Notes: generated from the sequence alone by a model not told the origin. 64,000 nt of DNA from Elusimicrobiota bacterium (GCA_027452025.1 DAIDHI010000033.1:4737-68736), one strand, 5' to 3'. Positions 6,359 to 46,213 are shown, numbered from the stretch's first letter. Numbers and translations: made by a program.

Positions 6359-6385
6359 CGCGCTTTAGAATAGCAGGAGGGCGGC

Positions 6386-28743: not shown

Positions 28744-28963
28744 TCCGAAACGCAAGCACACTCGCTCGCGGCGCGACAGCCGCCGCGCTCAGAACTGGAA
28801 GCTGGACGCGCTTTCCATGAGCGCCTGCGCCAATCCCGAATGCGGGAAGCTGCGCCCGCCGCACACCGTCTGCCCGCACTGCGGCTTTTACAACGGCAAG
28901 ATCGCCGTCGCTCCGAAGCAGAAGAAGGAAGCCGAAAGCGAAGGCGGAGAGCAAAAGAGCTAG
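28736..28963 (+). CDS. rpmF: 50S ribosomal protein L32
   Basis: MPNPKRKHTRSRRDSRRAQ N-terminus and the zinc-knuckle cysteines CANPECG...CPHCG. Confidence 0.9.
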   Translation: MPNPKRKHTRSRRDSRRAQNWKLDALSMSACANPECGKLRPPHTVCPHCGFYNGKIAVAPKQKKEAESEGGEQKS

Positions 28964-28974
28964 GCCGCCGGCGA

Positions 28975-29024
28975 AGGTGCCCGGCATTCACGATTTCTCG
29001 TGAACTCGCGAATGCCGGGCACCT
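28975..29024 (+). promoter_or_regulatory. 15-bp stem-loop between rpmF and plsX
   Basis: aggtgcccggcattc pairs with gaatgccgggcacct around a 20-nt loop. It ends 10 nt before the plsX TTG. No U-tract. Confidence 0.35.
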
Positions 29025-29034
29025 CGGGTGGATC

Positions 29035-30048
29035 TTGAAGCTGGCCCTCGACGCCGCGGCGGGGGATTTCGGGCTCGTCCCCAATATCGACGGAGCCTGC
29101 CGGGCCGCGGCGCAGGGCTTGGAGCTGCTGCTCGTCGGGCCGGCCCGCGACTTGGGCGAGCACCTCAGGCGCAAGGGCATCTCGGAATCGGACCCGCGCT
29201 TCGAGCTCGTCGACGCGCCGGAACTCGTCTCCATGTCGGAGGAGCCCGCGGCGGCCTGCCGCCTCAAGCCCCGCGCCTCGATCATGGTGTGCGCCCAGCT
29301 CGTCGCGTCCGGACGGGCGGCCGGGCTCGTATCGGCCGGAAATTCGGGAGCCGCCATGGCGGCGAGCCTGTGGCATCTTAAGAGGATCGACGGCGTCCTG
29401 CGTCCGGCCGTCGCGGCCGTCTTGCCCACGCCCCGCGGCCCAGTCGTGCTCCTCGACGCCGGGGCGAACGTCGACTGCAAGCCCTGGCACCTGGCGCAAT
29501 TCGCGGCGATGGGAAGCGTCTACGCGCAAGACGCGCTCGGCAAGGACCAACCCCGCATCGGCCTGCTTTCGATCGGGGAGGAATTTTCGAAGGGAAACAT
29601 GCTGGTCAAAGAGGCCGTCCCCTTGCTAGAATCGTCCGGCCTCGCCTTTCACGGAATGGTCGAGGGCCGCGATATCCCCGCGGGCACGGTGGACGTAATC
29701 GTGTGCGACGGCTTCGTCGGCAACGTCGCCGTGAAGTTGATGGAGGGGATGGGCGCGGCGGTGGCATCGCTCTTTAAAGCGGAGGTCGCGACCGGCTGGC
29801 TCTACGGAGCGGCGGCCGCTCTGTTGCGAGGGCCCTTGGAGCGCGTGAAACGCCGATTGAATTACGACGAATACGGCGGAGCGCCTCTGCTCGGAGTAGC
29901 GGGCAACGCGGTGATCGCCCATGGACGCTCCAACGGCAAGGCGATCGCCAACGCCTTGGGCATGGCGGCGCGCCTAAGCGAGCGCGGCAGCCAGGAGCGC
30001 ATCCGAAGAGCCGTCGACGATTTGAAGCACCAGCTGGAAAAGTTTTAA
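29035..30048 (+). CDS. plsX: Phosphate acyltransferase PlsX
   Basis: MKLALDAAAGDFG N-terminus (TTG start, the only in-frame start after the rpmF stop), plus SAGNSGA and VCDGFVGNVAVK motifs. Confidence 0.85.
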   Translation: MKLALDAAAGDFGLVPNIDGACRAAAQGLELLLVGPARDLGEHLRRKGISESDPRFELVDAPELVSMSEEPAAACRLKPRASIMVCAQLVASGRAAGLVSAGNSGAAMAASLWHLKRIDGVLRPAVAAVLPTPRGPVVLLDAGANVDCKPWHLAQFAAMGSVYAQDALGKDQPRIGLLSIGEEFSKGNMLVKEAVPLLESSGLAFHGMVEGRDIPAGTVDVIVCDGFVGNVAVKLMEGMGAAVASLFKAEVATGWLYGAAAALLRGPLERVKRRLNYDEYGGAPLLGVAGNAVIAHGRSNGKAIANALGMAARLSERGSQERIRRAVDDLKHQLEKF

Positions 30049-30062
30049 GAAGGGGCAATATC

Positions 30063-30845
30063 ATGACAACACAAACCGCAGCTCAGCCCGCGGCCGAGAC
30101 CGGCCTGCGGCTCAAAGACCGAGTGGCCATCATCACCGGTTCGGCTCAAGGCATCGGCTACGCTACGGCCGAGCTATTGGGGCAAAACGGCGCGAAGGTC
30201 GTGATGGTCGACGTCGACGCGGCCAAGATCGAGGAGTCCCGCAAGAGCCTCGAGGGCGCCGGAATCCAGACCCTCGGGGTGAAAGCCGACGTGACCCGCT
30301 TCGAGGACTGCGAAGGCGTCGTCAAATCCTCGCTGGACAAATTCGGGAAAATTGATATATTGGTCAACAACGCGGGCATCACCCGGGACAACCTGGTCAT
30401 GCGGATGTCGGAGGCGGACTGGGACCTGGTGCTCAATGTGAATCTCAAGGGAGCCTTCAATTTCATCAAGGCCGTCAGCCGCTCGATGCTCAAGGCTCAC
30501 TACGGGCGCATCGTGAACATCGCGTCCGTCGTCGGCGAGGAAGGCAACGCCGGCCAGGCGAATTACTGCGCCTCCAAGGGAGGGCTCATAGCGCTGACGA
30601 AGTCCTGCGCACGCGAGTTCGCCTCCCGCAACATCCTGTGCAACGCCGTGGCTCCCGGCTTCATCAGGACGCGCCTGACCGACGTGATTCCTGAGGCCGA
30701 GAAGCAGAAGTTGCTGACGAAGATTTTGGTGGGCCGCATGGGCGAACCCATCGATATCGCGCGCGCCGTGCTTTTCTTGGCGAGCGACGAGGCGTCCTAC
30801 ATCACCGGCCACGTTCTCAACGTGAACGGCGGCGGGTACATGTAG
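30063..30845 (+). CDS. fabG: 3-oxoacyl-ACP reductase
   Basis: TGSAQGIG cofactor motif, NNAGITRD, and the catalytic YCASKGG (YxxxK). Confidence 0.9.
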
Positions 30846-30864
30846 GTCCATAGGAGAAGACCAC

Positions 30865-31110
30865 ATGGCTGAGACAAGCGTTGCAGACCGCGTCAAGCAG
30901 ATCATCGTCGAGCAGTTGGGCGTAGACGCCGCCGAGGTGACCCCTCAGGCGCATTTCGTCAATGACCTGGGCGCCGACTCGCTCGACACCGTCGAGCTGG
31001 TGATGGCCCTGGAAGAGGAGTTCGACACCGAGATCCCCGACGAGCAGGCCGAGAAGATCCAGACCGTCGGCCAGGCGATCGACTACATCCAGGCGCACGC
31101 CAAGAAGTAG
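30865..31110 (+). CDS. acpP: Acyl carrier protein
   Basis: Phosphopantetheine site [20 protein letters not shown]. Confidence 0.95.
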
Positions 31111-31125
31111 CCGAAGGTCGACGCA

Positions 31126-31812
31126 GTGCCTGACGGGCTCAGACCTCTCGAGGAGGTCATCGGGTATCGCTTCAGGGATCCGGAGCTGCTCAACGAGGCG
31201 CTGTCTCACAAGTCCTTCGCCTCGGAGAGCAAATCCGGCGTTTACAACGAGCGATTGGAGTTTTTGGGCGACAGCATTCTGGCCGCCGTCGTCGCCCATC
31301 AGCTCTACGCGGGCTACCCGGACCAGGACGAAGGCAGCCTTTCCAAGAAGAAGTCTCAGCTCGTCTCGCGGCCGATGCTGGCGCGCTGGGCAGCCGGCAT
31401 CCGCTTGGGCGACTACCTGCTCCTCGGCGTCGGCGAGGAGACCTCGGGGGGACGAACCCGGCAGAGCCTGCTGGGAAACGCTCTCGAGGCCCTCATCGGC
31501 GCGATCTACCTCGACGGCGGCTACGAAGCGTCCGAGCGCTTCATAAGAGCCTGGCTGGTCGAGCACGGCGACATCCAGGAGACGGACTACAAGAGCCGGC
31601 TCCAAGAAGTGCTGCAAAAGAAGTTCAAAGTCCCGCCCGTTTACGAGCTGTCCGGATCGACCGGTCCTGACCATGACAAGACGTTTTTGGTCATGGTCAG
31701 GATCGGCGAGCGGGTCCTCGGGCGGGGATCGGGCAAGAGCAAGAAGGAAGCCGAGCAGTCGGCGGCGCGACACGCGCTGGAATCGGCCGCCGAGGGCGCG
31801 AGCAAGCCGTAG
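31126..31812 (+). CDS. rnc: Ribonuclease III
   Basis: Signature NERLEFLGDS and a C-terminal dsRBD (GSGKSKKEAEQSAARHAL). GTG start. Confidence 0.9.
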   Translation: MPDGLRPLEEVIGYRFRDPELLNEALSHKSFASESKSGVYNERLEFLGDSILAAVVAHQLYAGYPDQDEGSLSKKKSQLVSRPMLARWAAGIRLGDYLLLGVGEETSGGRTRQSLLGNALEALIGAIYLDGGYEASERFIRAWLVEHGDIQETDYKSRLQEVLQKKFKVPPVYELSGSTGPDHDKTFLVMVRIGERVLGRGSGKSKKEAEQSAARHALESAAEGASKP

Positions 31813-31829
31813 GGGACCAGGGAGGCGTC

Positions 31830-33074
31830 ATGGATTACGAGTTGACGGAGCAGCAGCAGGACATCGTTTCGCTCGCCGCGCTCTTGGCGCAGCAGAAGAT
31901 CAAGCCCGTGCGCGAGCACTATGACCAGACCGAGGAGTTCCCTTGGCCGATCGTCGAGGAGCTGCGCAAGGCCGACCTTTTCGGCGTCTATCTGCCGGAG
32001 GCCTACGGAGGCCTCGGCGGCGGGGCAGTCGAGCTCGTGCTGGTCACGGAGCAGATTTCGCGGGTCTGCGGCGGCATCGCGCTTGCCGTGGCGGCCTCCG
32101 GTCTTTGCGGCATCCCGATCCTTCTCTTCGGAAACGCCGAGCAGCGACAGAAGTGGCTTCCCGATCTCGCCAGCGGCAAGCGGCTGGGCGCGTTCACGAT
32201 CACGGAGCCTCAGGCCGGGTCCGACGCCACGGCCACGAAGTGCACGGCCAAACTCGAGGGCGACTATTACGTTCTCAACGGCCAGAAGAACTTCTGCTCC
32301 AACGGCAACGCCGCCGAGCTCTACACGCTGTTCGCGACCACCAACCCCAACCGCGGGGCGCGAGGCATCTCGGCCTTCGTCGTCGAAAAAGGCACGCCGG
32401 GCTTTACCTTCGGCAAGAAGGAGCACAAGATGGGAATCCGGGCTTCCTGGACTTACGACCTCATCTTCAACAACTGCAAGATCCCTAAAAAGAACCTCCT
32501 TTATAAAGAGGGCTACGGGCTCTTCGTCGCGCAGAATACGTTCGACATGTCCCGGCCCGGAGTGGCCGCGCAAGCCCTCGGCATCGGGCAGGGGGCGCTC
32601 GACGAGACGCTCTCCTATATTCGCGTGCGCAAGCAGTTCAACCAGACCATCGCGAGCTTCCAGGCCATCCAGCACATGATGGCGGACTCCGCCACTCAAA
32701 TCGAGGCCAGCCGGGCGTTGCTCTACGCCACGGCGAAGGCCATCGACAAGGCCTTCAAGCCAGCCATCGACGCGGCCATCGAGAAGGGCACGATCGTCTT
32801 CGACGAAATGAACCGGCTGGAGTGCAAGCGCTGGACGAAGGAGTCGGGCATGTGCAAGGTCATGTGCTCGGACACCGCCATGAAAGTGGCCGTAGACTGC
32901 GTGCAGATGTGCGGCGGCATCGGCTACATGCGGGATTTCCCGGTCGAGAAGTTCATGCGCGACGCCAAGATCACGCAGATCTACGAGGGGACGAACCAAA
33001 TCCAGCGCAACGAGATCGCCATGATGATCATAAAGGAAGCGGCCTCGAAGCAGAAGGAAGCGGTCGCCGCCTAG
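31830..33074 (+). CDS. Acyl-CoA dehydrogenase
   Basis: ACAD pattern (GAFTITEPQAGSD, YVLNGQKNF, QMCGGIGYMRDFPVEKFMRDAKITQIYEGTNQIQ). Carries an insertion of about 30 aa before the last helix bundle. Confidence 0.85.
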   Translation: MDYELTEQQQDIVSLAALLAQQKIKPVREHYDQTEEFPWPIVEELRKADLFGVYLPEAYGGLGGGAVELVLVTEQISRVCGGIALAVAASGLCGIPILLFGNAEQRQKWLPDLASGKRLGAFTITEPQAGSDATATKCTAKLEGDYYVLNGQKNFCSNGNAAELYTLFATTNPNRGARGISAFVVEKGTPGFTFGKKEHKMGIRASWTYDLIFNNCKIPKKNLLYKEGYGLFVAQNTFDMSRPGVAAQALGIGQGALDETLSYIRVRKQFNQTIASFQAIQHMMADSATQIEASRALLYATAKAIDKAFKPAIDAAIEKGTIVFDEMNRLECKRWTKESGMCKVMCSDTAMKVAVDCVQMCGGIGYMRDFPVEKFMRDAKITQIYEGTNQIQRNEIAMMIIKEAASKQKEAVAA

Positions 33075-33112
33075 CGCCTTGTCATCGAAAGCTTTTTGCC
33101 AAGGGCAAAAAG

Positions 33113-33149
33113 CAAGAGCCGGCCCCTCGGGGCCGGCTCTTGCCGTTTT
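33113..33149. terminator. Bidirectional Rho-independent terminator between convergent genes
   Basis: A 13-bp stem pairs caagagccggccc with gggccggctcttg. It is followed by cgTTTT on plus and TTTTTG on minus. An adjacent second hairpin pairs gctttttgc with gcaaaaagc (33091-33113). Confidence 0.65.
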
Positions 33150-33166
33150 GGGGGGCCGAGCCGTTC

Positions 33167-33835
33167 CTAGTCGGCCTTCTCCGCGGAAATCAGCCCGAGA
33201 TCGATTCCCTTGACCACGGCTTCGGTGCGGTTGGACACGCCCAGCTTCTGGAACATGCTGTTGAGATGATTCTTGACCGTCTTGACGCTGCACTCGAGGC
33301 GAGCGGCGATCTCCTTGTTCGATTGGCCGCGGCCGAGCAGCGCCAGGACCTTGATCTCGGTCTTGGTGAGCGCGACCAGGGAAGCCTCGGAAGAGGAGTT
33401 GCCCATCTGGCGCAGGCCGTCGATGAGCTTGCTCATGACCGGCTGCGGGATCATGACTCCTTGGTTGGCGAAGGCCTTCAAGGCGTTGACCAGCTCGGAG
33501 GCCGGCAGCATCTTGGAGAGGTAGCCGTTGGCTCCGGCCTGGATGGCTTCCATCACGTGGGATTCGTCCTCGAATGAGGAGAGGATGAGGACGTTGGTCG
33601 TCGGGCAGTCGCGGTGGATCTGTCGCGTCGCCTCGATGCCGTCCATATGAGGGAGCTTGATGTCGAGGAGGATGACGTTGGGCTTGAGCTTTTTAACCAG
33701 CCGCAGCGCTTCCTGACCGTCGGCGGCTTCGCCGACGACCTCGATGGACTTCTCGTTTTCAAGCAAGTCCTTGATGCCTTCCCGGAAAAGGGTCTGATCG
33801 TCCGCGATCACGACGCTGATCTTCTTCTTGGCCAC
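33167..33835 (-). CDS. NarL/LuxR-family response regulator (no adjacent kinase)
   Basis: Receiver domain (VVIADDQ, LLDIKLPHMDG) and a LuxR HTH (SNKEIAARLECSVKTVKNHLNSMFQKLGV). GTG start at 33835 preceded by GGAGAG. Confidence 0.85.
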   Translation of the reverse strand: MAKKKISVVIADDQTLFREGIKDLLENEKSIEVVGEAADGQEALRLVKKLKPNVILLDIKLPHMDGIEATRQIHRDCPTTNVLILSSFEDESHVMEAIQAGANGYLSKMLPASELVNALKAFANQGVMIPQPVMSKLIDGLRQMGNSSSEASLVALTKTEIKVLALLGRGQSNKEIAARLECSVKTVKNHLNSMFQKLGVSNRTEAVVKGIDLGLISAEKAD

Positions 33836-33935
33836 CTGTCGCTCTCCTTGACTGCCCGACGCGTCGCATAATATACAAAATATTTTCACTCGCGCCAGGG
33901 CAATCGCTTGGCGCGTCGTGAGGGGGGCTTTTTTT

Positions 33936-33944
33936 TGATATAAT
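33936..33944 (+). promoter_or_regulatory. Extended -10 (TGaTATAAT) for tRNA-Met
   Basis: A consensus TATAAT ends 9 nt before the first tRNA base. Confidence 0.4.
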
Positions 33945-33953
33945 CGCCGCCGC

Positions 33954-34026
33954 GGCGCCGTAGCTCAGGGGTTAGAGCGAGCGTTTCATAAGCGTTAGGT
34001 CGGTGGTTCAAATCCACCCGGCGCCA
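33954..34026 (+). tRNA. tRNA with CAT anticodon (elongator Met, or Ile2 if lysidinylated)
   Basis: Hand-folded. Acceptor GGCGCCG/CGGCGCC (G1-C72 paired, so not an initiator), anticodon loop TTCATAA, and T-arm GGTGG-TTCAAAT-CCACC. Confidence 0.8.
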
Positions 34027-34036
34027 CCGATTTGCG

Positions 34037-34064
34037 GGCCTGCGTCATCGCGGGCCTTTTTATT
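34037..34064 (+). terminator. Rho-independent terminator after tRNA-Met
   Basis: An 8-bp stem pairs ggcctgcg with cgcgggcc (one G-U pair) around the loop tcat, followed by TTTTTATT. Confidence 0.6.
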
Positions 34065-34084
34065 GGCCGTTTCGTGACGCCGGT

Positions 34085-34114
34085 TTGACTTGCCGCTTTG
34101 TTTATAGATATAGT
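34085..34114 (+). promoter_or_regulatory. Sigma70-like promoter TTGACT-18 nt-TATAGT for the histone-fold gene
   Basis: Seen in the AT-rich spacer about 50 nt upstream of ATG 34164. Confidence 0.5.
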
Positions 34115-34163
34115 TGGTTCGACGTCCTTATATACATCGCGTCTATTCAGGAGAGGGACCACA

Positions 34164-34346
34164 ATGGCCGAGACTCTCGTCGTCGTCAGCAAAGTCAAGA
34201 AGATCGTCAAGGACGCCGGTTTCCGCACGGGGGGCGATTATATCGACAGCCTCTCCAACAAGATCAGCAGCCTCATCCAGGCTTCCATCGAGAAGGTCAA
34301 GGCCGACGGCAAGAAGAAGACGCTCGGCGCCGAGGATCTGGCTTAA
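34164..34346 (+). CDS. Histone-fold DNA-binding protein (bacterial singlet histone-like, 60 aa)
   Basis: The sequence is MAETLVVVSKVKKIVKDAGFRTGGDYIDSLSNKISSLIQASIEKVKADGKKKTLGAEDLA. It aligns by eye with archaeal HMfB ([54 protein letters not shown]). AGGAGAG SD. The track ORF starts at an upstream ATG (34098) that lies inside the promoter region. Confidence 0.7.
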   Translation: MAETLVVVSKVKKIVKDAGFRTGGDYIDSLSNKISSLIQASIEKVKADGKKKTLGAEDLA

Positions 34347-34366
34347 GACCAGGGACACCGTCGCGC

Positions 34367-35371
34367 ATGCAAACGTTCAGGGATTTCATGGAGGCAGCCC
34401 TCTACGACCCTGAGCGCGGCTATTATAGCCGCCGCACGCCGACGGAGGATTTCTACACCGCTCCGGAGCTGCATCCCGCCTATGCCGGAGCGCTCGCGCG
34501 CGTCGTGGCCCAGCGCTTCGAGCTGATGAAGGCGGCCGGCGTCCCGGGGCCTTATTCTGTCGTGGAAATGGGCTGCGGCCAGGGGCGCCTCGGACGGGCG
34601 CTGCTCTGCGAGTTCAAGCAGAGGCACCCGGCCTGGGCGACGCAGACCCGCTACGTCCTCATCGAGCGTTCCCGCACGGCGCTGCTCGACGCCATCATGG
34701 CGGCCTCGCAGGTCCACGGGCAGGTGTTGGGCTACAGCCGCCTCGAGGAGCTCCTTCCCTGCTCCGGGATCTTCCTGTCCAACGAGCTGGTGGACGCCTT
34801 CCCGGTGCACCTGCTCGAGAAGCGCTCCGGGCGAGTCTTCGAGGTCTATGTCGAGGATTCCGGACGCACCGTGCTCTCCGATCTGTCCACGCCGGAGCTG
34901 GTCCCCCATGCTCAAGCGGTCGAGGCCAGCCTCGCCGAGGGCGAGCGCCATGCCGTCAATCTTGAAGCCCGCCGCTGGCTGCGCCTGGTCTCCCAGAAGC
35001 TCGAGGCGGGCTACGTCGTGACGATTGACTACGGCAAGCGCTTCGGCGCCAGCCCCAATCCTCCGCGGACGTTCTACCGGCACACCACCGATGAACTGGT
35101 GACCGACGGCAAGGGCCGCAAGGACATCACGGCCTCCGTCGACTTCGACGCCCTCATCGACGAGGGCGGCCGCTTGGGTCTCGGCTTGGAGCTTTACGGC
35201 TCGCTTTCTCGCTTCCTGCTCGAGGCCGGAATCGCGGATTGGATGCCGTCGGGAGACTCCGTGGCCGACCTCAAGGCTCGCACGAAAATCAAGACGCTCA
35301 TCCATCCGGAAGGGATGGGCGAGGTCTTCAAGGTTTTGATCCAGAAGAGATCCCCGGAGCTGCCCCAATGA
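34367..35371 (+). CDS. MidA/NDUFAF7-family SAM-dependent methyltransferase (DUF185)
   Basis: FMEAALYDPERGYYS N-terminus, SAM motif VVEMGCGQGRLG, NELVDAFPVH and TIDYG motifs typical of the MidA family. The stop overlaps the nuoA ATG (ATGA). Confidence 0.75.
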   Translation: MQTFRDFMEAALYDPERGYYSRRTPTEDFYTAPELHPAYAGALARVVAQRFELMKAAGVPGPYSVVEMGCGQGRLGRALLCEFKQRHPAWATQTRYVLIERSRTALLDAIMAASQVHGQVLGYSRLEELLPCSGIFLSNELVDAFPVHLLEKRSGRVFEVYVEDSGRTVLSDLSTPELVPHAQAVEASLAEGERHAVNLEARRWLRLVSQKLEAGYVVTIDYGKRFGASPNPPRTFYRHTTDELVTDGKGRKDITASVDFDALIDEGGRLGLGLELYGSLSRFLLEAGIADWMPSGDSVADLKARTKIKTLIHPEGMGEVFKVLIQKRSPELPQ

Positions 35372-35724
35372 TGAGCGCGTTCGCCGTCGTCTATGCCCTC
35401 ACTCTCGTCGCCGTTCTTTTCGCGGCCGTGACGCTGATCGCGGCCAAGCTGCTTCGGCCGCGCGTGGAATACGCCCGGAAACTCTCCACCTACGAGTGCG
35501 GCATCCCGGCCGTCGGCACCACCGAGGTCAAGCTCAACATCCGCTTCTACGTCTTCGCCTTGCTGTTCGTGCTCTTCGACGTCGAGACGCTCTACGTCTA
35601 TCCTTGGGCCGTCACGGCCAAGAGCCTGGGCACGCCGGCGATCGCGGAGATGGGAGTTTTCCTCGCGATTCTCTTCATCGGGCTGGCTTACGCCTGGGCC
35701 AAGGGCGCGCTGCAGTGGGAATAG
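35368..35724 (+). CDS. nuoA: NADH-quinone oxidoreductase subunit A
   Basis: Three TM helices with YECG and FDVE motifs. Confidence 0.9.
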   Translation: MMSAFAVVYALTLVAVLFAAVTLIAAKLLRPRVEYARKLSTYECGIPAVGTTEVKLNIRFYVFALLFVLFDVETLYVYPWAVTAKSLGTPAIAEMGVFLAILFIGLAYAWAKGALQWE

Positions 35725-35747
35725 GGGACTAGACCGAGAGATTCGAC

Positions 35748-36356
35748 ATGGGCATCGTCATCGAGAAGCTGCCGGGAATCACCAAGGGCCTGCCAGGCGG
35801 GGAACTCCTCCTGACGACGGCCGACTACTTCGTCGATCTGGGCCGCCGGGCGTCGCTTTGGCCGATGACGTTCGGCCTTGCCTGCTGCGCCATCGAAATG
35901 ATGGGCTCCTATGCCTCGCGCTTCGATTTCGACCGCATGGGGGTCATTCCCCGCGCCAGCCCGAGACAGGCCGACGTGATGATCGTGGCGGGCACCGTCT
36001 GCAAGAAGATGGCCGAGCCGATCCTGGAGATCTATCACCAGATGCCCGAGCCGCGCTTCGTCATCTCGATGGGCTCTTGCGCCAACTGCGGCGGGCCCTA
36101 TTACGACTCATACTCGGTGCTCAAGGGCGTGGACAGGATCGTGCCTGTCGACGTATACATCGCGGGCTGCCCTCCCCGTCCCGAGGCCCTGCAATACGCG
36201 GTGGTCAAGCTCCAGGAGAAGATCGCCCGCATGAAGCTCTCCCAAGCGGGAGGAGCCTCGCTCCAGCAGGAGCGAGGCAGCCGCGACGTCGTCGGCGGCG
36301 CGGCGCCCCAGCCGCTGCCCGGTTCGGAGACCGGGCCGCGCATCGAGGTCGGCTGA
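35748..36356 (+). CDS. nuoB: NADH-quinone oxidoreductase subunit B (with a C-terminal extension of about 40 aa)
   Basis: N2-cluster cysteines [20 protein letters not shown] and AGCPPRPE. Confidence 0.95.
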
Positions 36357-36357
36357 G

Positions 36358-36927
36358 ATGACCCAAGACGAGCTTTACTCCAAACTGGCGGCGGAGCTGC
36401 CGCACCTTGAGAAGGCCCAGACGCAGGTCAAGGACTATCTCACGATGCGCCTTCCCTCGGCCGATCGCCTTCTCGAGACCGTCCGCGCCCTCAAGGAACG
36501 GCTGGGCTTCGATTACCTGGAGATGGTGAGCGCCACCGACTGGCTCGGGCCCGTCAAGCCGGAAGGCTACATCCGCAACCCGAACCCGATCGTCTTCATG
36601 GCCGAGGGGGCCACGCCGCAAAGCATCCCCACGGCGACGCCGAACTTCCCGTATCGTCCGATGATCGAGCTGGTCTGGATGCTCGCCAACATCCCGGAGA
36701 AGATCAGGCTCGTCCTCAAGCTGGAAGTGCCGCGCGAAGACGCCGCGGTCCCGAGCCTTTGCGGCCTCTTCAAGGCGGCCGACTGGCAAGAGCGCGAGAT
36801 CTACGATTTGATGGGCGTGGCCTTCACGGGCCATCCCAATCTGACGAAGATCCTCACGCCGGAGTTCCTCCAGGGCCATCCGTTGCGCAAGGATTACGTC
36901 CACGTCAAGGACCGCTTCGATGAATAA
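36358..36927 (+). CDS. nuoC: NADH-quinone oxidoreductase subunit C
   Basis: [23 protein letters not shown] and PLRKDY motifs. Confidence 0.9.
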
Positions 36928-38062
36928 AGGAGCCATGGCCCCAGACCAGGAGCAGGACACGCCCTTGAAGTCGGACTCGATGTTCATCAATCTTGGCCCG
37001 CAGCACCCGTCGACCCACGGCGTGCTTCGCGTCGGCCTGACCATCGATGGAGAAATGATCACCAAGGCCGTGCCCGACGTCGGCTATCTCCACCGAGGCA
37101 CGTCCAAGCTCGCCGAGGTCCGCGGCTACCATCACTGCGTCGTCCTCACGGACCGCTGGGATTACGTCTCCGCGATGCCCAACAACCTGGTCTTCTGCCT
37201 GGCCGCGGAACGCCTGATGGGGCTAAATGTGCCGCCGCGCGGCGACGTCCTGCGCGTGCTCATGTGCGAGCTCAACCGCATCGCCAGCCACCTGCTGTTC
37301 TTCGGGACCTACGGCATCGACATCGGCGCCTTCACGCCGTTCCTCTACGCTTTCCGCGAACGAGAGATGATCCTCGACCTCTTCGAGATGGTCAGCGGCG
37401 CGCGCCTGACCTACAACTACATCCGCCTCGGCGGCGTGATGGTGGATGTGACCGACGAGTGGGTGGCCAAGTGCCGCGAGTTCATCGAGTACTTCAAGCC
37501 GCGACTCGACGAGTACGACACGCTCCTCACTTATAATCCGATCTTCATGGCGCGCACCGAGAAGGTCGGCCTCATCCCGCCGCAGACGGCGGTCAACTGG
37601 GGCCTCTCGGGCCCCAACCTGCGCGGGTCGGGCGTCAATTACGACGTGCGCAAGGCCGACCCGTATTGCGGCTACGAGCAATACGACTTCGAGATTCCGC
37701 TGGGCAAGACCGGCTCTTGCTGGGATCGCTACTTCTGTCGCGTCTCGGAGATGCGCCAGTCGGTGCGCATCGTCTTGCAGGCTCTCGACAAGCTCGCGCC
37801 GGGACCGGTCATGGCCCCCGGAGTGGCGAAGGTGCCCAAGCCCCAGCCGGGCGAGGCGTACGCTCACGTCGAGGGCGCGCGAGGCGACCTGGGCATCTTC
37901 CTCGTCTCCGACGGCCAGGCAAGCCCCTATCGCATGCACGTGAAGGCGCCGTCCTTCATGAATCTGGCCATCCTCCAGGAGCTGCTGGTCGGCAACAAGG
38001 TCTCCGACGTGATCGCCATCCTGGGGTCGACCGACATCGTCTTGGGCGAGGTGGACCGTTAA
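36920..38062 (+). CDS. nuoD: NADH-quinone oxidoreductase subunit D
   Basis: [23 protein letters not shown] and the C-terminal DIVLGEVDR motifs. An alternative start is ATG 36935. Confidence 0.95.
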
Positions 38063-39442
38063 ATGAGCGAACCGGCGAAGGAAAAGGAAGCCGTACCGGC
38101 GGCGACGCCAGCGAATGTCGTGCCGGCCGGGGCGGCGGCAGCGCCGGCGGCCGCCGCGGGCACCGTCGCCCCGAAGCCGGCGCCGAAAGCCGCCGCCAAG
38201 CCCCTGCCCACGCCCGTCTTCAACGAGCGCCACGGCAAGCTCATTTTGAATTCCCGCTACTGGCCCACCGAACTGTGGAAGAGCCCTTGGTCGCTGCCCA
38301 GCTACCGCAAAGGAGCGCTGGTGCTCTTCGGCCTCATCGCCGGCATCCTCCTCACCGGCGCCGCCGTGGGGGAGCTCTCGCGCTGGGCGGATAAGCTCTA
38401 CGCCTTGATCGCCGCCTTCGTCGCGGCCCGGCATTGGCCCGCCGTGACGACCGACGCGGTCTGGGACCTCATCAAGATCCTGATCGTGCTGCACGTCGTG
38501 CTTATCAACGGCCTCTGGGCCATCTGGTGGGAGCGCAAGATCTCCGCGCACATCCAGTCCCGCGTCGGACCGACTTACGCGGGAGGCTGGCACGGCTGGG
38601 CTCAGACTCTCCTCGACGGCGTCAAGCTGCTGCTCAAAGAGGACATCACGCCGACGGCCGCCGACAAGTGGGTGCACGCCCTGGCCCCGGCGATCGTCGT
38701 GGCGCCCGTGATCATTGCCTTCGCCCCGGTGACCTTCGGCAAGCAGCTGGCGGCGGCGAACCTCGACATGGGCGTGCTCTACATCTTCGCCTTCGCGGGG
38801 ATCTCCGTCATCGGCGTCATCATGGCCGGCTGGGCGTCCGGCAACAAGTACTCGCTGCTCGGCGGCCTGCGCGCTTCCGCGCAGCTCGTCAGCTACGAGC
38901 TGCCTCGCGGCTTTTCGATCGTCCCGGTCCTGATGTTCGCCGGCTCCCTGAACCTCTCCACCATCGCCGACGCGCAAGCGGGCTACTGGCACGGCTTGCC
39001 CCGCTGGTTCATCTTCTATCCGGTGATCGGGCCGCTCGCCTTCGTGATCTTTCTCATCGCCTCGGTCGCGGAGACCAACCGCACCCCCTTCGACATCCCG
39101 GAGGCCGAGTCCGAGCTCGTGAGCGGCTTTCATACGGAATATTCGGGTATGAAGTGGTCGATCTTCTTCCTGGCCGAATACGGCTACGTCCTGCTCGCCT
39201 CGTTTTTGCTGGCGACGTTTTTCCTCGGCGGCGGCGCCTCTCCCTTCGCCTTCGACCACGTGATCCCGAGCTGGATTTGGATGCTGGGCAAGGCGATGCT
39301 GATGATGTTCACGTTCCTCTGGATTCGCTGGACGTTCCCGCGCTTGCGCGCCGACCAGCTGATGGATTTCAACTGGAAGTTCCTGCTCCCCTGGAGCTTC
39401 GCCAATATCGCCTTCGCGGGCCTGTTCCTCCTCTTCCGATGA
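38063..39442 (+). CDS. nuoH: NADH-quinone oxidoreductase subunit H with an N-terminal extension of about 120 aa
   Basis: The core begins around WWERKISAHIQSRVGP, with ETNRTPFDIPEAESELVSGFHTEYSG further on. The ATG directly abuts the nuoD stop (TAAATG). Confidence 0.85.
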   Translation: MSEPAKEKEAVPAATPANVVPAGAAAAPAAAAGTVAPKPAPKAAAKPLPTPVFNERHGKLILNSRYWPTELWKSPWSLPSYRKGALVLFGLIAGILLTGAAVGELSRWADKLYALIAAFVAARHWPAVTTDAVWDLIKILIVLHVVLINGLWAIWWERKISAHIQSRVGPTYAGGWHGWAQTLLDGVKLLLKEDITPTAADKWVHALAPAIVVAPVIIAFAPVTFGKQLAAANLDMGVLYIFAFAGISVIGVIMAGWASGNKYSLLGGLRASAQLVSYELPRGFSIVPVLMFAGSLNLSTIADAQAGYWHGLPRWFIFYPVIGPLAFVIFLIASVAETNRTPFDIPEAESELVSGFHTEYSGMKWSIFFLAEYGYVLLASFLLATFFLGGGASPFAFDHVIPSWIWMLGKAMLMMFTFLWIRWTFPRLRADQLMDFNWKFLLPWSFANIAFAGLFLLFR

Positions 39443-39966
39443 TCGAATACTTCTCGAAGGTCTTTCGCGGCGCCTGGGCCACCGTGGCCGGGATGATGGT
39501 GACGCTCAAATACATGGTCAAGCCCTCCGTCACGGTGCATTATCCGACGGAGAAGCTCGTGCCTTTCGAGCGCTTCCGGGGGGCGCTGCTTTTCGACCCG
39601 GGCACCTGCATCTCCTGCAATCTGTGCGTGAAGGCTTGCCCCTCGACCTGCATCACGCTCGAGAACGCCACCATCCCCGACCCCAAGAATCCCGCGATCA
39701 AGAAAAAGGTCGCCAAGGTGGACTGGTACACCATCGATTTCGGCAAATGCAACTTTTGCCGGCTTTGCGAGGAATCCTGCCCGACCAAGCCGAAGTCGGT
39801 CTGGCATTCGCTCGACTACGAGGTCGTGTTCTTCTCCCGCGACGAGATGGTCCGGTGCTGGAAGGCGGGCACGAAGTTCGTCGGCCAGTATTGGGACCGC
39901 AAAGAGAAGGCCTTCAAGGATCCCGAGGGACAGATTCAGATCCAAGACGTGCAGGCGAGGCGCTAG
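39439..39966 (+). CDS. nuoI: NADH-quinone oxidoreductase subunit I
   Basis: Two 4Fe-4S motifs, CISCNLCVKACP and CNFCRLCEESCP. ATGA overlap with nuoH. Confidence 0.9.
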   Translation: MIEYFSKVFRGAWATVAGMMVTLKYMVKPSVTVHYPTEKLVPFERFRGALLFDPGTCISCNLCVKACPSTCITLENATIPDPKNPAIKKKVAKVDWYTIDFGKCNFCRLCEESCPTKPKSVWHSLDYEVVFFSRDEMVRCWKAGTKFVGQYWDRKEKAFKDPEGQIQIQDVQARR

Positions 39967-40461
39967 ATGCTCGAACAGATCGTCTTCTATTCGCTGGCCG
40001 CGCTGATCACCGCGTCGGCCCTTATGGTCGTGACGGCGAGGAACACAGTGCACTCCGCCCTGTTCTTGGGCCTGTGCTTGGCCGGCGTGGGGGGGATTTT
40101 CGCGCTGCTCGGAGCCGATTTTCTTTTCGCAGGCCAGATCATGGTCTATGTCGGCGGCATCGCCGTCCTGATCATGTTCGTGGTCATGCTCCTCGGCCGG
40201 GCCTCCGACCTGCACCTGCGACAGATGAACAAGCAGTGGGCGGCGGCGCTGCTGGTCTGCGCCGCCTCGCTGGCCGGGTTCTGGAAGATCGTGCGGATGG
40301 CGGGCGGGGCCCTCGCGACGGCGCCGGTCAAGCCGACGACCGGCCCGCTGGGTCTCATCATGATGGGCGACTACGCCCTGCCTTTCGAGCTCGTCTCCCT
40401 GGTGCTGACCGGGGCGCTGCTCGGGGCGATCTTTTTCTCCCGCAGCGAGAAAAGCCAATGA
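39967..40461 (+). CDS. nuoJ: NADH-quinone oxidoreductase subunit J
   Basis: Typical NuoJ TM pattern (FLFAGQIMVYVGGIAVLIMFVVML) and position in the operon. Confidence 0.85.
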   Translation: MLEQIVFYSLAALITASALMVVTARNTVHSALFLGLCLAGVGGIFALLGADFLFAGQIMVYVGGIAVLIMFVVMLLGRASDLHLRQMNKQWAAALLVCAASLAGFWKIVRMAGGALATAPVKPTTGPLGLIMMGDYALPFELVSLVLTGALLGAIFFSRSEKSQ

Positions 40462-40763
40462 ACCTGGGAAGCTACGTCGCTCTGTCGGCCGCGTTGTTTT
40501 TGATCGGGGTCTTCGGCGCCCTGACCCGGCGCAACATCATCGGCATTCTCATGGCCATCGAGCTCATGTTCAACGCCGCCAACATCAACCTGGCCGCTTT
40601 CAACCGATATCTGCATCCGGGCGGCATCATCGGCCAGACCCTGGCGCTCTTCATCATCAGCATCGCCGCCGCCGAGGTCGTGGTCGGCCTGTCGCTGGTC
40701 CTGGCGATCTACCGCAACACCGACACCGTCTACGTCGAGGACTACAACCTGCTCAAGGGATAA
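40458..40763 (+). CDS. nuoK: NADH-quinone oxidoreductase subunit K
   Basis: 101 aa with three TM helices, ILMAIELMFNAANINL and IAAAEVVVGLSLVLAIYR. ATGA overlap with nuoJ. Confidence 0.9.
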   Translation: MNLGSYVALSAALFLIGVFGALTRRNIIGILMAIELMFNAANINLAAFNRYLHPGGIIGQTLALFIISIAAAEVVVGLSLVLAIYRNTDTVYVEDYNLLKG

Positions 40764-40767
40764 GCCC

Positions 40768-42732
40768 ATGCTTGAACACGTCTACCTCATCCCGCTGATC
40801 CCGCTATTCGCCTCCCTGGTCATCCTTCTGGGCTTCAAGGAGGACCCGCACTCTCCGGCGCCCTACCTCGGCCTCGCGGCGATGGGCTGGTGCCTGCTGC
40901 AGGCCGTCTCGATCTTCTGGGGCGTGGCCGGGGGCCGCATCGTTCTGCCTTACGAAGCCAGCATCAATTGGTTTCCCCTGGCGACCGAGGTGGCCGGCAA
41001 GGCGTTTTCCTACCAGATGCCGATCGGCGTCCTTATCGACGGCCCGGCGGCCGTGATGCTCGTCGTCGTGACGCTGGTGAGCTTCCTCGTCCAGCTCTAT
41101 TCGCTCGGCTACATGCACGGCGATTCGCGCTTCAGGCGCTACTACGCCTTCCTCTCTTTCTTCACGGCTTCGATGCTGGGCCTGGTCGTTTCCAACAATC
41201 TCCTGGTCACGTTCATGTGCTGGGAGCTGGTGGGCGTCTCCTCTTACCTGCTCATCGGCTTCTGGTTCGAGAAGCCCGGGCCCGCGTACGCTTCCAAGAA
41301 GGCGTTCATGACGACGAAGCTCGGCGACTGCGGCCTCTACCTGGCGCTCCTCTTCATCTTCACGAAGGTCGGCAGCTTCCAGATCGATCAGGTCCGCGAG
41401 TTCGCGACCCGCGGATATTTCGGGATGGGCGCGGCGACGGCGATCGGCTTCGGCCTGCTGTGCGGCTGCGCCGGCAAGTCGGCGCAATGGCCCCTCTTCA
41501 TCTGGCTGCCCGATGCCATGGAGGGCCCGACGCCGGTGTCGGCCCTCATCCACGCGGCCACCATGGTGGCCGCCGGCATCTACCTCATCGCCAAGACGTA
41601 CTTCATCTTCCTGGCCGCCCCGATCGCGATGGAGGCCGTGGCCTGGATCGGCCTCATCACGGCTTTTCTCGCGGCGTCGATGGCCTTGGTCTCCTACGAC
41701 ATCAAGCGCGTCCTCGCCTTCTCCACCGTTTCCCAGCTCGGCTTCATGATGTGCGCGCTGGGGGCGGGGGGCTACACCGCCGGCCTGTTCCATCTGACCA
41801 CGCACGCTTTCTTCAAGGGCCTCCTCTTCTTGGGCGCGGGCTCGGTGATCCATGCCGTGCACACCAACGATATGCGCTCGATGGGCGGCCTGTCGAAAAA
41901 GATGCCCATCACGTTCCTGACGATGCTCGCGGCGACTCTGGCCATCTCCGGCGTTTGGCCCTTTGCGGGCTATTTCTCCAAGGACATGATCCTTGAAAGC
42001 GTCTATCATCACAGCCCCGTCATGTTCTACTTGCTGACCGCGGCCGCCTTGATGACGGCCTTCTACATGTTCCGCTTGATCTCCATGACCTTCCTGGGCC
42101 CCGACCGCGACCACGAGAAGCACCACCACGCGCACGAGTCTCCGCTGGTGATGACCGTGCCCCTCATGGTCCTCGGCCTCCTGTCCGTCGTCGCCGGCGC
42201 CGCACTGGCCCACGACGGCTTCGTGGAGCGCCTGCTGTCGTTCCCGATGCCGCAGACGCCGGGGCCGGAGTTTCCGAGGGCTCTGGGCCTGGGCGTCAGC
42301 GCCTTGGTCTTGTGTTCGCTGGCCCTGTCCTGGTTCCTCTACGGGCGCGGCGACTTCTCGATCGCCGAGGCCGTTAAGAAGCGCTTTTCCGCCGTCTTCA
42401 ACGTCCTCGAGGGCCGTTATTATTTCGACCAGTTGTTCCTGGGTCTGGTCGCCGTCGCCGACGGCGCGGCCAAGCTCGCCTTCTGGATCGACGCGCGCGT
42501 CATCGACCAGACGTTCGTCGACGGCTGGGGGTTGCTCATGCGGGTGTTCTCGGAGCTCAGCGCCTTGTTCGACGGCCTCTTCATCGACCGCACGGTGGAC
42601 GGCTTCGGGGGCTTGAGCTCGGACCTGGGCACGGGCCTGCGCGCCTTGGTCGCCGATGGGCAGGTGCAGGAGTATTTGCTGTACGCGGCGATCGCCGTGA
42701 GCTTGGCCACGATCTTCATCTTGTCGCGTTGA
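40768..42732 (+). CDS. nuoL: NADH-quinone oxidoreductase subunit L
   Basis: Antiporter-like core (FMCWELVGVSSYLLIGFW, WLPDAMEGPTPVSALIHAATMV) plus the long C-terminal lateral-helix region. Confidence 0.95.
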   Translation: MLEHVYLIPLIPLFASLVILLGFKEDPHSPAPYLGLAAMGWCLLQAVSIFWGVAGGRIVLPYEASINWFPLATEVAGKAFSYQMPIGVLIDGPAAVMLVVVTLVSFLVQLYSLGYMHGDSRFRRYYAFLSFFTASMLGLVVSNNLLVTFMCWELVGVSSYLLIGFWFEKPGPAYASKKAFMTTKLGDCGLYLALLFIFTKVGSFQIDQVREFATRGYFGMGAATAIGFGLLCGCAGKSAQWPLFIWLPDAMEGPTPVSALIHAATMVAAGIYLIAKTYFIFLAAPIAMEAVAWIGLITAFLAASMALVSYDIKRVLAFSTVSQLGFMMCALGAGGYTAGLFHLTTHAFFKGLLFLGAGSVIHAVHTNDMRSMGGLSKKMPITFLTMLAATLAISGVWPFAGYFSKDMILESVYHHSPVMFYLLTAAALMTAFYMFRLISMTFLGPDRDHEKHHHAHESPLVMTVPLMVLGLLSVVAGAALAHDGFVERLLSFPMPQTPGPEFPRALGLGVSALVLCSLALSWFLYGRGDFSIAEAVKKRFSAVFNVLEGRYYFDQLFLGLVAVADGAAKLAFWIDARVIDQTFVDGWGLLMRVFSELSALFDGLFIDRTVDGFGGLSSDLGTGLRALVADGQVQEYLLYAAIAVSLATIFILSR

Positions 42733-42781
42733 GCAAGGATTTGACGGAAGCAAATTCAATGAGGAAGCAGGGGTCTAACGT

Positions 42782-44242
42782 ATGAACATGCTGAGCCTGG
42801 TCACTTTCATTCCCTTGGCGGGGGCGCTGCTCGTCCTGGCGCTGCCCAAGGAGCGCGTCAAGGCGATCCAAGCGACGGCGCTGGCGAGCGCCGGGGCCTC
42901 CCTGGCCCTGTCGATCGCGCTGATCCCGCTGTTCAACCGGGGCTCGGCCGACATGCAGTTCGTCGAGCGGCTGTCCTGGATCCCCTCGATGGATATCCAC
43001 TATGTCCTCGGCGTCGACGGCCTCTCCTTCCCGCTGCTGCTGCTGACGACCTTCATCAGCTTCATCGCCCTGATCGGGTCGCTGGGCATCAAGGAGCGCG
43101 TCAAGGAGTATTTCTTCTGGTTCCTGGTCCTGGAAGTGGGCATGCTCGGCGTCTTCGAGGCCCTCGACCTCGTGCTTTTCTACGTGTTCTGGGAGCTCTG
43201 CCTCGTCCCGATGTATTTCCTGATCGGCATCTGGGGCGGCCCGCGCAAGGAGTTCGCCGCGATCAAGTTCTTCCTGTATACCCTGGCCGGCTCCGTTTTC
43301 ATGCTGCTGGCCATCCTGGCCGTCTACTTCAACACGGCCCCGCACACCTTCGACATGATCGCCTTGATGAAGGCCCACTCCGCTTGGAGCCTGAAGTTCC
43401 AGATCCTGGTATTCCTGGGCTTCTACCTGGCCTTCGCTATCAAGATTCCGGCCTTCCCGTTCCATACCTGGCTGCCGTTGGCGCACGTCGAGGCGCCGAC
43501 CGCCGTTTCCGTCATCCTGGCCGCCGTGCTGCTCAAGATGGGCCTCTACGGCCTGCTGCGCGTCTGCTACGAGATGCTCCCGCTGGGCTTTCACTGGTTC
43601 CTGCCCTTCCTGATCGCCATCGCCGTAATCAACATCGTCTACGGCGCCCTGTGCGCCATGGCGCAGACGGACATGAAGAAGATGGTCGCCTATTCCTCGG
43701 TCAACCACATGGGCTACTGCCTGCTGGGCGTGGCCGGCGTCTCGGCGATCGGATTTTCGGGCGCCGTGCTCCAGATGATCAACCACGGCATCATCACCGG
43801 CTCCCTGTTCCTTCTCGTCGGCGTGATCTACGACCGCGCCCATACGCGCGACATCTCGGCCTTCGGCGGCCTCGCCGCCCGGGTGCCGATCTATGCCGGC
43901 CTGATGTTTTTGGCCTGCTTCGCCTCCCTGGGCCTGCCCGGGCTGGCGGGCTTCGTCAGCGAGTTCATGTGCTTCCTCGGGGGCTTCGCGCAGTGGAAGA
44001 TCTATACGGCGATCTCGGTGCTGGGCGTGCTCGCCACGGCGGCCTTTTTCCTGCGCATGATGGAGAAGGTCTTCCTCGGGCCGCTCAACAACAAGTGGGC
44101 GGGACTTTCCGACATGAGCGCTCGCGAACTGTGCTCGATCGTGCCGCTGACCGTGCTGACCATCGCTTTCGGCGTCTGGCCGAAGCTCGCGTTGGCCTTC
44201 ATCAATACCACGGCGGTGCAGATGGCCGGCCTCTTCAAATAA
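42782..44242 (+). CDS. nuoM: NADH-quinone oxidoreductase subunit M
   Basis: FYVFWELCLVPMYFLIGIWG and HTWLPLAHVEAPTAVSVILA motifs. Confidence 0.95.
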   Translation: MNMLSLVTFIPLAGALLVLALPKERVKAIQATALASAGASLALSIALIPLFNRGSADMQFVERLSWIPSMDIHYVLGVDGLSFPLLLLTTFISFIALIGSLGIKERVKEYFFWFLVLEVGMLGVFEALDLVLFYVFWELCLVPMYFLIGIWGGPRKEFAAIKFFLYTLAGSVFMLLAILAVYFNTAPHTFDMIALMKAHSAWSLKFQILVFLGFYLAFAIKIPAFPFHTWLPLAHVEAPTAVSVILAAVLLKMGLYGLLRVCYEMLPLGFHWFLPFLIAIAVINIVYGALCAMAQTDMKKMVAYSSVNHMGYCLLGVAGVSAIGFSGAVLQMINHGIITGSLFLLVGVIYDRAHTRDISAFGGLAARVPIYAGLMFLACFASLGLPGLAGFVSEFMCFLGGFAQWKIYTAISVLGVLATAAFFLRMMEKVFLGPLNNKWAGLSDMSARELCSIVPLTVLTIAFGVWPKLALAFINTTAVQMAGLFK

Positions 44243-44245
44243 GCG

Positions 44246-45700: not shown

Positions 45701-46213
45701 ATGTTGGCTCCTTTGGCCGTTTGTTTGCTCGCCCTGACGCCCGCCCGCGCCTCCCTCGACGGCTCCAACTCGCCTACGCTCACGCTCTTGAACCGCACGG
45801 CCGCCCAGGACACGGCCGCGGCGGGCGCGACGCGCCCCGAGGACTCCAAGGAGCAGGCCTCTCAGGCCTTCACCGGAGGCAGCCCCGCCGCTTCGGCGCC
45901 TCTGCCTACCGGCACGGCCGCCAACGGGCAATCCTACATCATGGTCGGCCAAAGCCCCATCCAGGGCATCAGCATCTATACCCCGAAGCTCGATCCGAGC
46001 GGCCACGGGACCACCGGCCAGCCTACGGCCCGGGATTTCATCAGCCGCAAGAAGGTCTTCGGCGCGGGGGCCCTTGGCGCGGCCGCCGTGGTCGGAGGCT
46101 TGATGGCGGGCGGGGGCTTGGGAGCGGCCCTGCTCGTGCTCGGCGGAGCGCTGCTCGGCGTCGCGGCGCTTTTTGGCTGGCTCAACCACAAGCTCAAGAA
46201 GGGCAAGCGCTGA
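45701..46213 (+). CDS. Hypothetical secreted protein with a C-terminal glycine-zipper membrane segment
   Basis: Signal peptide MLAPLAVCLLALTPARA. C-terminal GAGALGAAAVVGGLMAGGGLGAALLVLGGALLGVAALFGW followed by KLKKGKR. Confidence 0.5.
   Translation: MLAPLAVCLLALTPARASLDGSNSPTLTLLNRTAAQDTAAAGATRPEDSKEQASQAFTGGSPAASAPLPTGTAANGQSYIMVGQSPIQGISIYTPKLDPSGHGTTGQPTARDFISRKKVFGAGALGAAAVVGGLMAGGGLGAALLVLGGALLGVAALFGWLNHKLKKGKR

Follow-up and report, generated by a model that had tools for sequence, protein, structure and literature searches.

Does the 60-aa ORF that precedes the complex I genes of an Elusimicrobiota bacterium encode a histone, and what would such a protein do at the head of a respiratory gene string? 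A first-pass annotation had proposed a bacterial histone-fold protein of the Bd0055/HBb class, expressed from its own promoter and followed by a MidA-nuo gene string. We analyzed the 64,000-nt stretch of DNA that carries the ORF (the window; G+C 66%) and compared it with related loci. The features of the window on which the analysis draws are listed below.

33954 to 34028, + strand: tRNA-Met, anticodon CAT (ARAGORN; Rfam tRNA, 68 bits)
34036 to 34067, + strand: terminator-like hairpin 3' of the tRNA, 9 pairs (7 G-C) with a T-rich tail (consensus scan)
34085 to 34114, + strand: sigma-70-like promoter TTGACT-18-TATAGT (consensus scan, 10/12 matches)
34150 to 34157, + strand: Shine-Dalgarno (SD) GGAGAGGG, 6 nt ahead of the ATG (from sequence)
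34164 to 34346, + strand: histone gene, ATG start, TAA stop, 60 aa; predicted α3-truncated product of the HBb/Bd0055-like "bacterial dimer" class
34347 to 34366, + strand: 20-nt spacer from the histone stop to MidA, no terminator
34367 to 35371, + strand: MidA/NDUFAF7-type methyltransferase, Methyltransf_28 (Pfam E 2.2e-36), whose stop overlaps the nuoA start (ATGA)
35368 to 45670, + strand: nuoA-B-C-D-H-I-J-K-L-M-N, 11 subunits, without nuoEFG (ORFs and Pfam)

The 60-aa ORF is a conserved gene

The ORF was present exactly as annotated, from an ATG to a TAA at 34164-34346 on the + strand, and its 60-aa product, MAETLVVVSKVKKIVKDAGFRTGGDYIDSLSNKISSLIQASIEKVKADGKKKTLGAEDLA, is basic with a pI of 9.35. 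A longer in-frame ORF opens with a TTG at 34098; every homologue begins at MAE. The good SD and the TTGACT-18-TATAGT promoter claimed for the gene were both recovered. SDs of the GGAGG/AGGAG type occurred within the final 20 nt before the ATG at nearly all related loci, and the promoter-like site was the sole one between 33700 and 34700, where the consensus scan expected 0.1. In the nearest relatives (L007, L066, L001 and L076) the hexamers were identical or nearly so and lay about as far away. All promoter and terminator assignments in this work are consensus-scan predictions. An Rfam search of 33800-34500 returned the tRNA only, with no leader or riboswitch.

We identified 755 homologues at E<=1e-3, almost all of them 59-60 aa long and the best 80-93% identical. 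A look-up of the exact window protein gave no record, the nearest cluster being 93% identical. Relatives were encoded by 115 species-representative genomes, and 80 non-redundant loci kept of the 115 matches, plus the window, made up our locus set. The labels of the 80 kept loci were nearly all Elusimicrobia, Elusimicrobiota or Endomicrobia, four being labelled only "bacterium"; at the closest loci the histone was 85-88% identical and NuoD up to 88%. With the window copy as the reference, the median pN was 0.17 against a median pS of 0.51, indicating at the sequence level that the gene is under strong purifying selection. The histone claim had made presence of the ORF in close relatives a point of proof, and hundreds of length-conserved homologues provided it.

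The product is predicted to have an α3-truncated histone fold

When all PDB chains were searched by phmmer with the single window sequence, the only significant matches were α3-truncated histones of bacteria and archaea. The best were the entries of Bdellovibrio HBb/Bd0055 (8fvx and 8cmp; E about 5e-9, residues 1-58 to 1-58, 39 bits), which agrees with the class first assigned, and they were followed by Leptospira HLp (9qt0; E 1e-7, 35 bits) and Thermococcus HTkC (9f2c; E 1.5e-4). A family profile searched against the PDB reached the M. kandleri histone (1f1e, E 3e-8), HmvA (E 4e-8), HMfA (E 2e-5) and HMfB (E 6e-5), the last bearing out the kinship with archaeal HMfB that had been noted by eye; it also matched HPhA and the Asgard/archaeal histone A (9qv5) and, more weakly, NF-YB and H4. 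Since the HBb sequence is within this profile, HBb is its top match by construction, while the archaeal matches are independent of that inclusion.

A search with Pfam PF00808 (CBFD_NFYB_HMF) had also been proposed, lack of a significant match counting against the claim, and this condition would technically have applied: the window protein fell below the cutoff (E 0.096; 13.4 vs 21.4 bits), and NCBIfam gave no match to it. Naming sources label the homologues "hypothetical protein", and no precomputed Pfam domain was found. Among 52 family members searched against Pfam, PF00808 was the commonest weak match (28/52, best E 3.5e-5), with DUF1931 and core Histone next. The sub-threshold score comes from a Pfam model that detects this clade poorly, and it does not count against the fold. 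As PF00808 was not significant, the histone assignment was drawn from the fold and from the sequence and profile matches in the PDB.

We predicted the fold of the monomer with AF2 from a 52-sequence alignment of Elusimicrobia, Bdellovibrio-type and outgroup proteins. The model (pLDDT 87.7) had a helix-loop-long central helix-loop-helix architecture, with α1 at residues 2-17, L1 at 18-23, α2 at 24-48 (25 residues), L2 at 49-55 and α3 at 56-58, the chain ending at residue 60. In a Foldseek search of the PDB the top eight matches were HLp, HBb (four entries) and HTkC, with a probability of 1.00, TM scores of 0.72-0.81 and rmsd values of 1.4-2.7 Å; Asgard, eukaryotic H4, TAF and NF-Y histone folds came next, and each of the 50 PDB matches listed was a histone-fold protein. 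The structural check proposed for the histone fold therefore came out in its favour. A separate AF2 run from 31 close homologues had given a low-confidence helical hairpin (pLDDT 68.7), for which Foldseek returned designed proteins and coiled coils; that model was discarded.

The sequence signatures first pointed out were also in place, with VKDAG closing helix 1 and GKKKTLGAEDL at L2/α3. Helix 3 was indeed truncated; the chain stops two residues past ED, and α3 was a single turn in the model. An α3 of 3-4 residues and a shortened α2, which mark the "bacterial dimer" histones, were both found in the AF2 model. The S-K motif, the α1 lysines and the L2 RKT...D of the same class were present as S9-K10, K12, K13, K16, K51-K52-T53 and D58, with K instead of R at the first position of the RKT motif, and clustering with HBb-like bacterial proteins was indicated by HBb as the best PDB match and by the published lists. 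Together these results support the assignment of the ORF product as a bacterial histone of the α3-truncated, HBb/Bd0055-like "bacterial dimer" class.

Most DNA contacts of HBb are retained, with substitutions at defined positions

We compared the window histone with HBb of Bdellovibrio bacteriovorus (PDB 8fvx, 8cmp, 9ezz and 9f0e), to which it is about 45-48% identical over the whole chain. The two proteins share the N-terminus MAE-LVV-SKVKK with the bacterial S9-K10 motif, a short α2, a one-turn α3, a basic pI and a bacterial origin. The main DNA contacts of HBb are N22, R57, S9, T53, T8, S24, K10, K12, K52 and K16, of which R57 is the second-best (Hu 2024, PMC11317129). S9, K10, K12, K16, K52 and T53 are identical in the window histone, whereas N22 is replaced by the basic R21, R57 by E57 as in HMfB, and T8 by V8. 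The clamp of HBb is R51-D58, reinforced by D49, and its hydrophobic dimer interface consists of V11, L31, I35, L38 and I59 (Hu 2024, PMC11317129). The window histone keeps the KADG motif and the clamp residues D48 and D58 but has K51 in place of R51; its interface positions are V11, L30, I34, L37 and L59. It also differs from HBb in having an L1 one residue shorter, an L2 one residue longer (GKKKT vs GRKT) and a length of 60 aa vs 64 aa, without the IVIDHL tail. S9, K10, K16, K52, T53 and D58 were invariant over the Elusimicrobia and Bdellovibrio sequences, and R21-T22-G23-G24-D25 and K52-T53-L54-G55 were invariant across Elusimicrobia.

The archaeal nucleosomal histones HMfA and HMfB (PDB 1b67 and 1a7w) share with the window protein the histone fold, an IKDAG-type end of α1 and an (R/K)KT-x3-ED L2/α3 signature. 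In a pairwise BLASTP with what we take to be the HMfB sequence, R21 aligned with R19. The window protein differs in its α2, about one turn shorter, and in its α3 of only one turn, and it has neither the full-length α3 nor the C-terminal tetramerisation surface of the HMfB type; without that surface, hypernucleosome formation is not expected.

On the analogy of HBb, two chains would form a handshake histone-fold dimer that would touch DNA non-specifically (backbone, minor groove). The contacts would come from the first turn of α1 (S9, K10, K12 and K16) and from the paired L1/L2 loops (R21, T22, K52 and T53), braced by a K51-D58/D48 clamp. Binding would bend the DNA with no wrapping, as HBb does, and the histone would be a small, abundant nucleoid-associated protein.

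The histone gene appears to be the first cistron of a MidA-nuo operon

The first-pass annotation had placed the gene at the head of a MidA-nuo string, separated from it by a 20-nt gap with no hairpin, and this description was accurate. No terminator-like site was predicted on the + strand of the 20-nt spacer, the histone-MidA junction did not fold unusually (z = -1.4), and the Methyltransf_28 gene at 34367-35371 is followed by 11 nuo genes. As nuoD is followed directly by nuoH, the NADH-oxidising N-module (nuoEFG) is missing from the cluster; complex I without an N-module has been described for groundwater and peat Elusimicrobia, and the window cluster matches it. The consensus scan of the window gave no further + strand promoter-like site before nuoL, and terminator-like sites were at chance frequency. 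The gene would thus be transcribed from its own promoter, just 3' of the tRNA-Met gene, and would open a single long transcription unit, histone-MidA-nuoABCDHIJKLMN. Judged from the spacer, the single promoter, the scarcity of terminators and the synteny described below, histone and nuo genes appear to form an operon.

Three ORFs on the same strand follow directly on nuoN, two without a Pfam match (45701-46213, 170 aa; 46229-47116, 295 aa) and one encoding a DUF350 membrane protein (47126-47671), and all three may belong to the nuo transcription unit as well. Upstream, 28840-33889 holds plsX, fabG, acpP and the genes of RNase III and an acyl-CoA dehydrogenase on the + strand, together with a divergent gene for a NarL/LuxR-type response regulator (33167-33889, - strand) that was 74-95% identical and in the same position at about 40 related loci.

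Linkage of histone and nuo genes is widespread in Elusimicrobia

Conservation of this gene order in related genomes, which had been put forward as a check, was examined by tblastn with the neighbour proteins of the window in the 80 non-redundant related loci plus the window; 78 loci were informative downstream. The histone gene lay just upstream of nuoA in 65 of the 78, window included. The order was histone-MidA-nuoA in 42/78 (again with the window), histone-UbiE/COQ5-type methyltransferase-nuoA in 16/78 (Pfam E down to 5e-44) and histone directly followed by nuoA in 7/78; a Pyr_redox_2 oxidoreductase came next in 3/78 and something else in 10/78. The three arrangements that lead to nuoA coincide with three clades, whose NuoD is 70-88%, 58-67% and 67-76% identical to that of the window, and the 65 loci are therefore not independent. 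The distance from the histone stop to the next gene was mostly 3-60 nt and sometimes negative (overlap). At 70 of 81 loci there was no terminator-like hairpin 3' of the histone gene, and the clearest terminators were found where nuo was not downstream (L014, L080 and L084).

The slot between histone and nuoA is filled by MidA in one clade and by the unrelated UbiE/COQ5 in another, and is empty in a third; loci recorded for this methyltransferase slot are L004, L010, L012, L018, L048, L052, L056 and L060. At L024, L027 and L032 the histone gene (about 6001-6183) is followed by that of a 456-460-aa Pyr_redox_2 flavoprotein (about 6211-7581) with no nuo, the histone gene still lying behind the response regulator and tRNA-Met. 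This flavoprotein might belong to the NDH-2- or SQR-like quinone reductases; it would look as though the position had passed from one NADH/quinone oxidoreductase to another. L089/L090, outside the 78-locus set, carry the histone gene (5001-5183) in a PFK-histone-AAA_17 kinase-dCMP deaminase string with 0-30 nt spacers, and L068, L075 and L085, two of them labelled Endomicrobia and all three counted among the 10 other arrangements, share the histone-kinase(-deaminase) part. The histone gene is thus embedded in an operon also at loci that lack a downstream nuo cluster. Other genes, not nuo, were found 3' of the histone gene at L014, L080 and L081.

The HBb-type genes of Bdellovibrio stand alone, convergent with ligA, whereas the Elusimicrobia gene heads a nuo string; the gene of an archaeal relative lies among translation genes. 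Since α3 histones are in general single-gene operons (Schwab 2024, PMC11390915) and the Bdellovibrio genes stand alone, the histone-nuo arrangement is atypical. It would be ancestral and widely retained in respiratory Elusimicrobia, and the linkage may be inherited gene order. The persistence of the histone without adjacent nuo, including in genomes labelled Endomicrobia, a class that has been described as fermenting, argues that its core function is independent of complex I.

A tRNA-Met gene often precedes the histone gene

The tRNA at 33954-34028 is preceded by TATAAT at 33940-33945 and its G1-C72 acceptor end marks it as a non-initiator type; from its sequence it would be elongator Met or possibly tRNA-Ile2. 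A same-strand tRNA-Met(CAT) within 1.2 kb upstream of the histone gene was found at 48 of about 80 non-redundant loci, among them L014, L016, L021, L036, L039, L040, L044, L050, L063, L080, L081 and L084. The gap from the tRNA to the histone ATG was often only about 43 nt in these 48 loci, a spacing that suggests joint transcription of tRNA and histone with processing by RNase P/Z. In these short-gap relatives the histone is probably co-transcribed with tRNA-Met. The window differs from them in the terminator-like hairpin that follows the tRNA and in the separate promoter of the histone gene.

Alternative explanations

We weighed three other readings of the ORF. A chance ORF or a mis-called short peptide without function might be suspected from the length of 60 aa, from the label "hypothetical protein" wherever homologues are named and from the missing precomputed Pfam domain and NCBIfam match, but hundreds of homologues of conserved length, strong purifying selection, a conserved SD and a confidently predicted histone fold make this next to impossible; the number of homologues, pN/pS, the AF2 model and Foldseek exclude a spurious ORF. 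It is also conceivable that the protein is a face-to-face (FtF) α3 histone like HLp of Leptospira perolatii (PDB 9qt0-9qt2) and HTkC of Thermococcus kodakarensis (9f2c), forming homotetramers that wrap DNA and not a bending dimer. Both proteins have the same truncated histone fold and a similar length, with 35-38% identity; HLp is the top Foldseek match (TM 0.77/0.81, rmsd 1.9 Å) and a strong sequence match, and two of its tetramer residues, R49 and R55, have basic counterparts in K44 and K51. The similarity to tetrameric, DNA-wrapping HLp nearly equals that to HBb, so similarity does not distinguish a bending dimer from a wrapping tetramer. However, the FtF interface of HLp (R49, N53 and R55) aligns with K44, D48 and K51 and is not reproduced in the window histone, where the interface asparagine N53 is an aspartate, D48, inside the same KADG motif as in dimeric HBb. 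The sequence score of HBb is, moreover, slightly above that of HLp (39 vs 35 bits). Published clustering puts the Elusimicrobiota histones in the "bacterial dimer" group and not with the FtF histones, and for that dimer group AlphaFold gave no confident oligomer above the dimer (Schwab 2024, PMC11390915). We judge an FtF tetramer unlikely.

The third reading moves the primary role to complex I, with the protein as a nuo regulator, an assembly or accessory factor or a MidA substrate and not a general chromatin protein. The tight same-strand linkage to nuo in 65/78 loci of three clades speaks for it, as does the fact that this linkage stays while the middle gene (MidA, UbiE-type or none) and the upstream flank vary. 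Terminators 3' of the histone gene are usually absent, the arrangement is atypical beside the stand-alone Bdellovibrio homologues and the single-gene α3 histones (Schwab 2024, PMC11390915), and an invariant R21 in an R-T-G-G loop is encoded beside a homologue of protein-arginine methyltransferases. On the other hand, the same DNA-contact residues occur where nuo is not downstream (L068, L075, L085, L089/L090, L014, L080 and L081), Endomicrobia described as fermenters are among the hosts, homology indicates non-specific DNA binding, and the linkage may simply have been inherited. R21 is just as conserved at loci where MidA is not the neighbour, and the known substrate of MidA/NDUFAF7 is an arginine in the HRGXE motif of NuoD/NDUFS2; the HRG arginine is present in the window NuoD (LHRGTSK). 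MidA together with this arginine suggests that arginine methylation of a bacterial complex I takes place here. A primary role in complex I is very unlikely. That the histone is wired into the nuo operon, its dosage tied to respiratory or growth state through a tRNA-Met/histone/nuo transcript, or that MidA methylates it at R21, is likewise distinctly unlikely. The best explanation, which we hold to be probable as a whole, is an HBb-class histone whose handshake dimer bends DNA and whose gene is the first cistron of the MidA-nuo unit; by analogy with HBb, the histone most likely functions as a nucleoid protein that, as a dimer, bends DNA non-specifically and is co-transcribed with nuo.

Relation to known bacterial histones and significance

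Histones occur in <2% of bacterial genomes. The novelty of the window protein had been overrated, the Elusimicrobia subfamily being already in published surveys. Supplementary Table 1 and the alignment of Hocher 2023 list it among bacterial singlet histones, and comparison with that list, as had been proposed, gave near-identical Elusimicrobia proteins; one entry, OGR57714.1 of Elusimicrobia bacterium GWA2_69_24 (MSETLVVVSKVKAMVKASGFRTGGDFLDALSSRVNQIVQAAIEKVKNEGAKKTLGAEDL), comes from the same genome as our locus L040. The "bacterial dimer" α3 histones have been defined, with Elusimicrobiota among their main hosts (Schwab 2024, PMC11390915), and Elusimicrobiota were named for the HBb-type group with conserved DNA-contact residues (Hu 2024, PMC11317129). 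Since Elusimicrobia members are already catalogued, the locus does not extend the protein family by a new category. In the wider family we noted many tandem doublets of 118-150 aa with two histone folds per chain, and signal-peptide-like or long N-terminal fusions such as P0126 (279 aa) and P0167 (189 aa); P0123, P0133 and P0137 are among the other proteins noted for such doublets or fusions.

The genomic context is a different matter. A full-text literature search for a link between histone-fold proteins and nuo, or between Elusimicrobia, histones and NADH dehydrogenase, found nothing relevant; Hocher 2023 does not treat operons or genomic context, and the accessible part of the Schwab 2024 supplements held no Elusimicrobia strings. 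There appears to be no earlier report of a histone gene at the head of an N-module-less complex I operon, often with tRNA-Met in front of it, and the phylum-wide order tRNA-Met, histone, optional methyltransferase, nuo contradicts the generalisation that α3 histones are single-gene operons.

Characterised bacterial histones are limited to those of Bdellovibrio and Leptospira, the Elusimicrobia proteins being known from sequence. The window locus provides a clean example of an Elusimicrobia histone with its promoter, SD and operon context, and the Elusimicrobia variant (K51 clamp, E57, R21 and a shorter tail) is a natural comparison for the HBb residues behind DNA bending. It opens to testing the idea of a chromatin protein co-regulated with respiration and of possible histone methylation; if MidA were to methylate R21, histone arginine methylation would have an example in bacteria.
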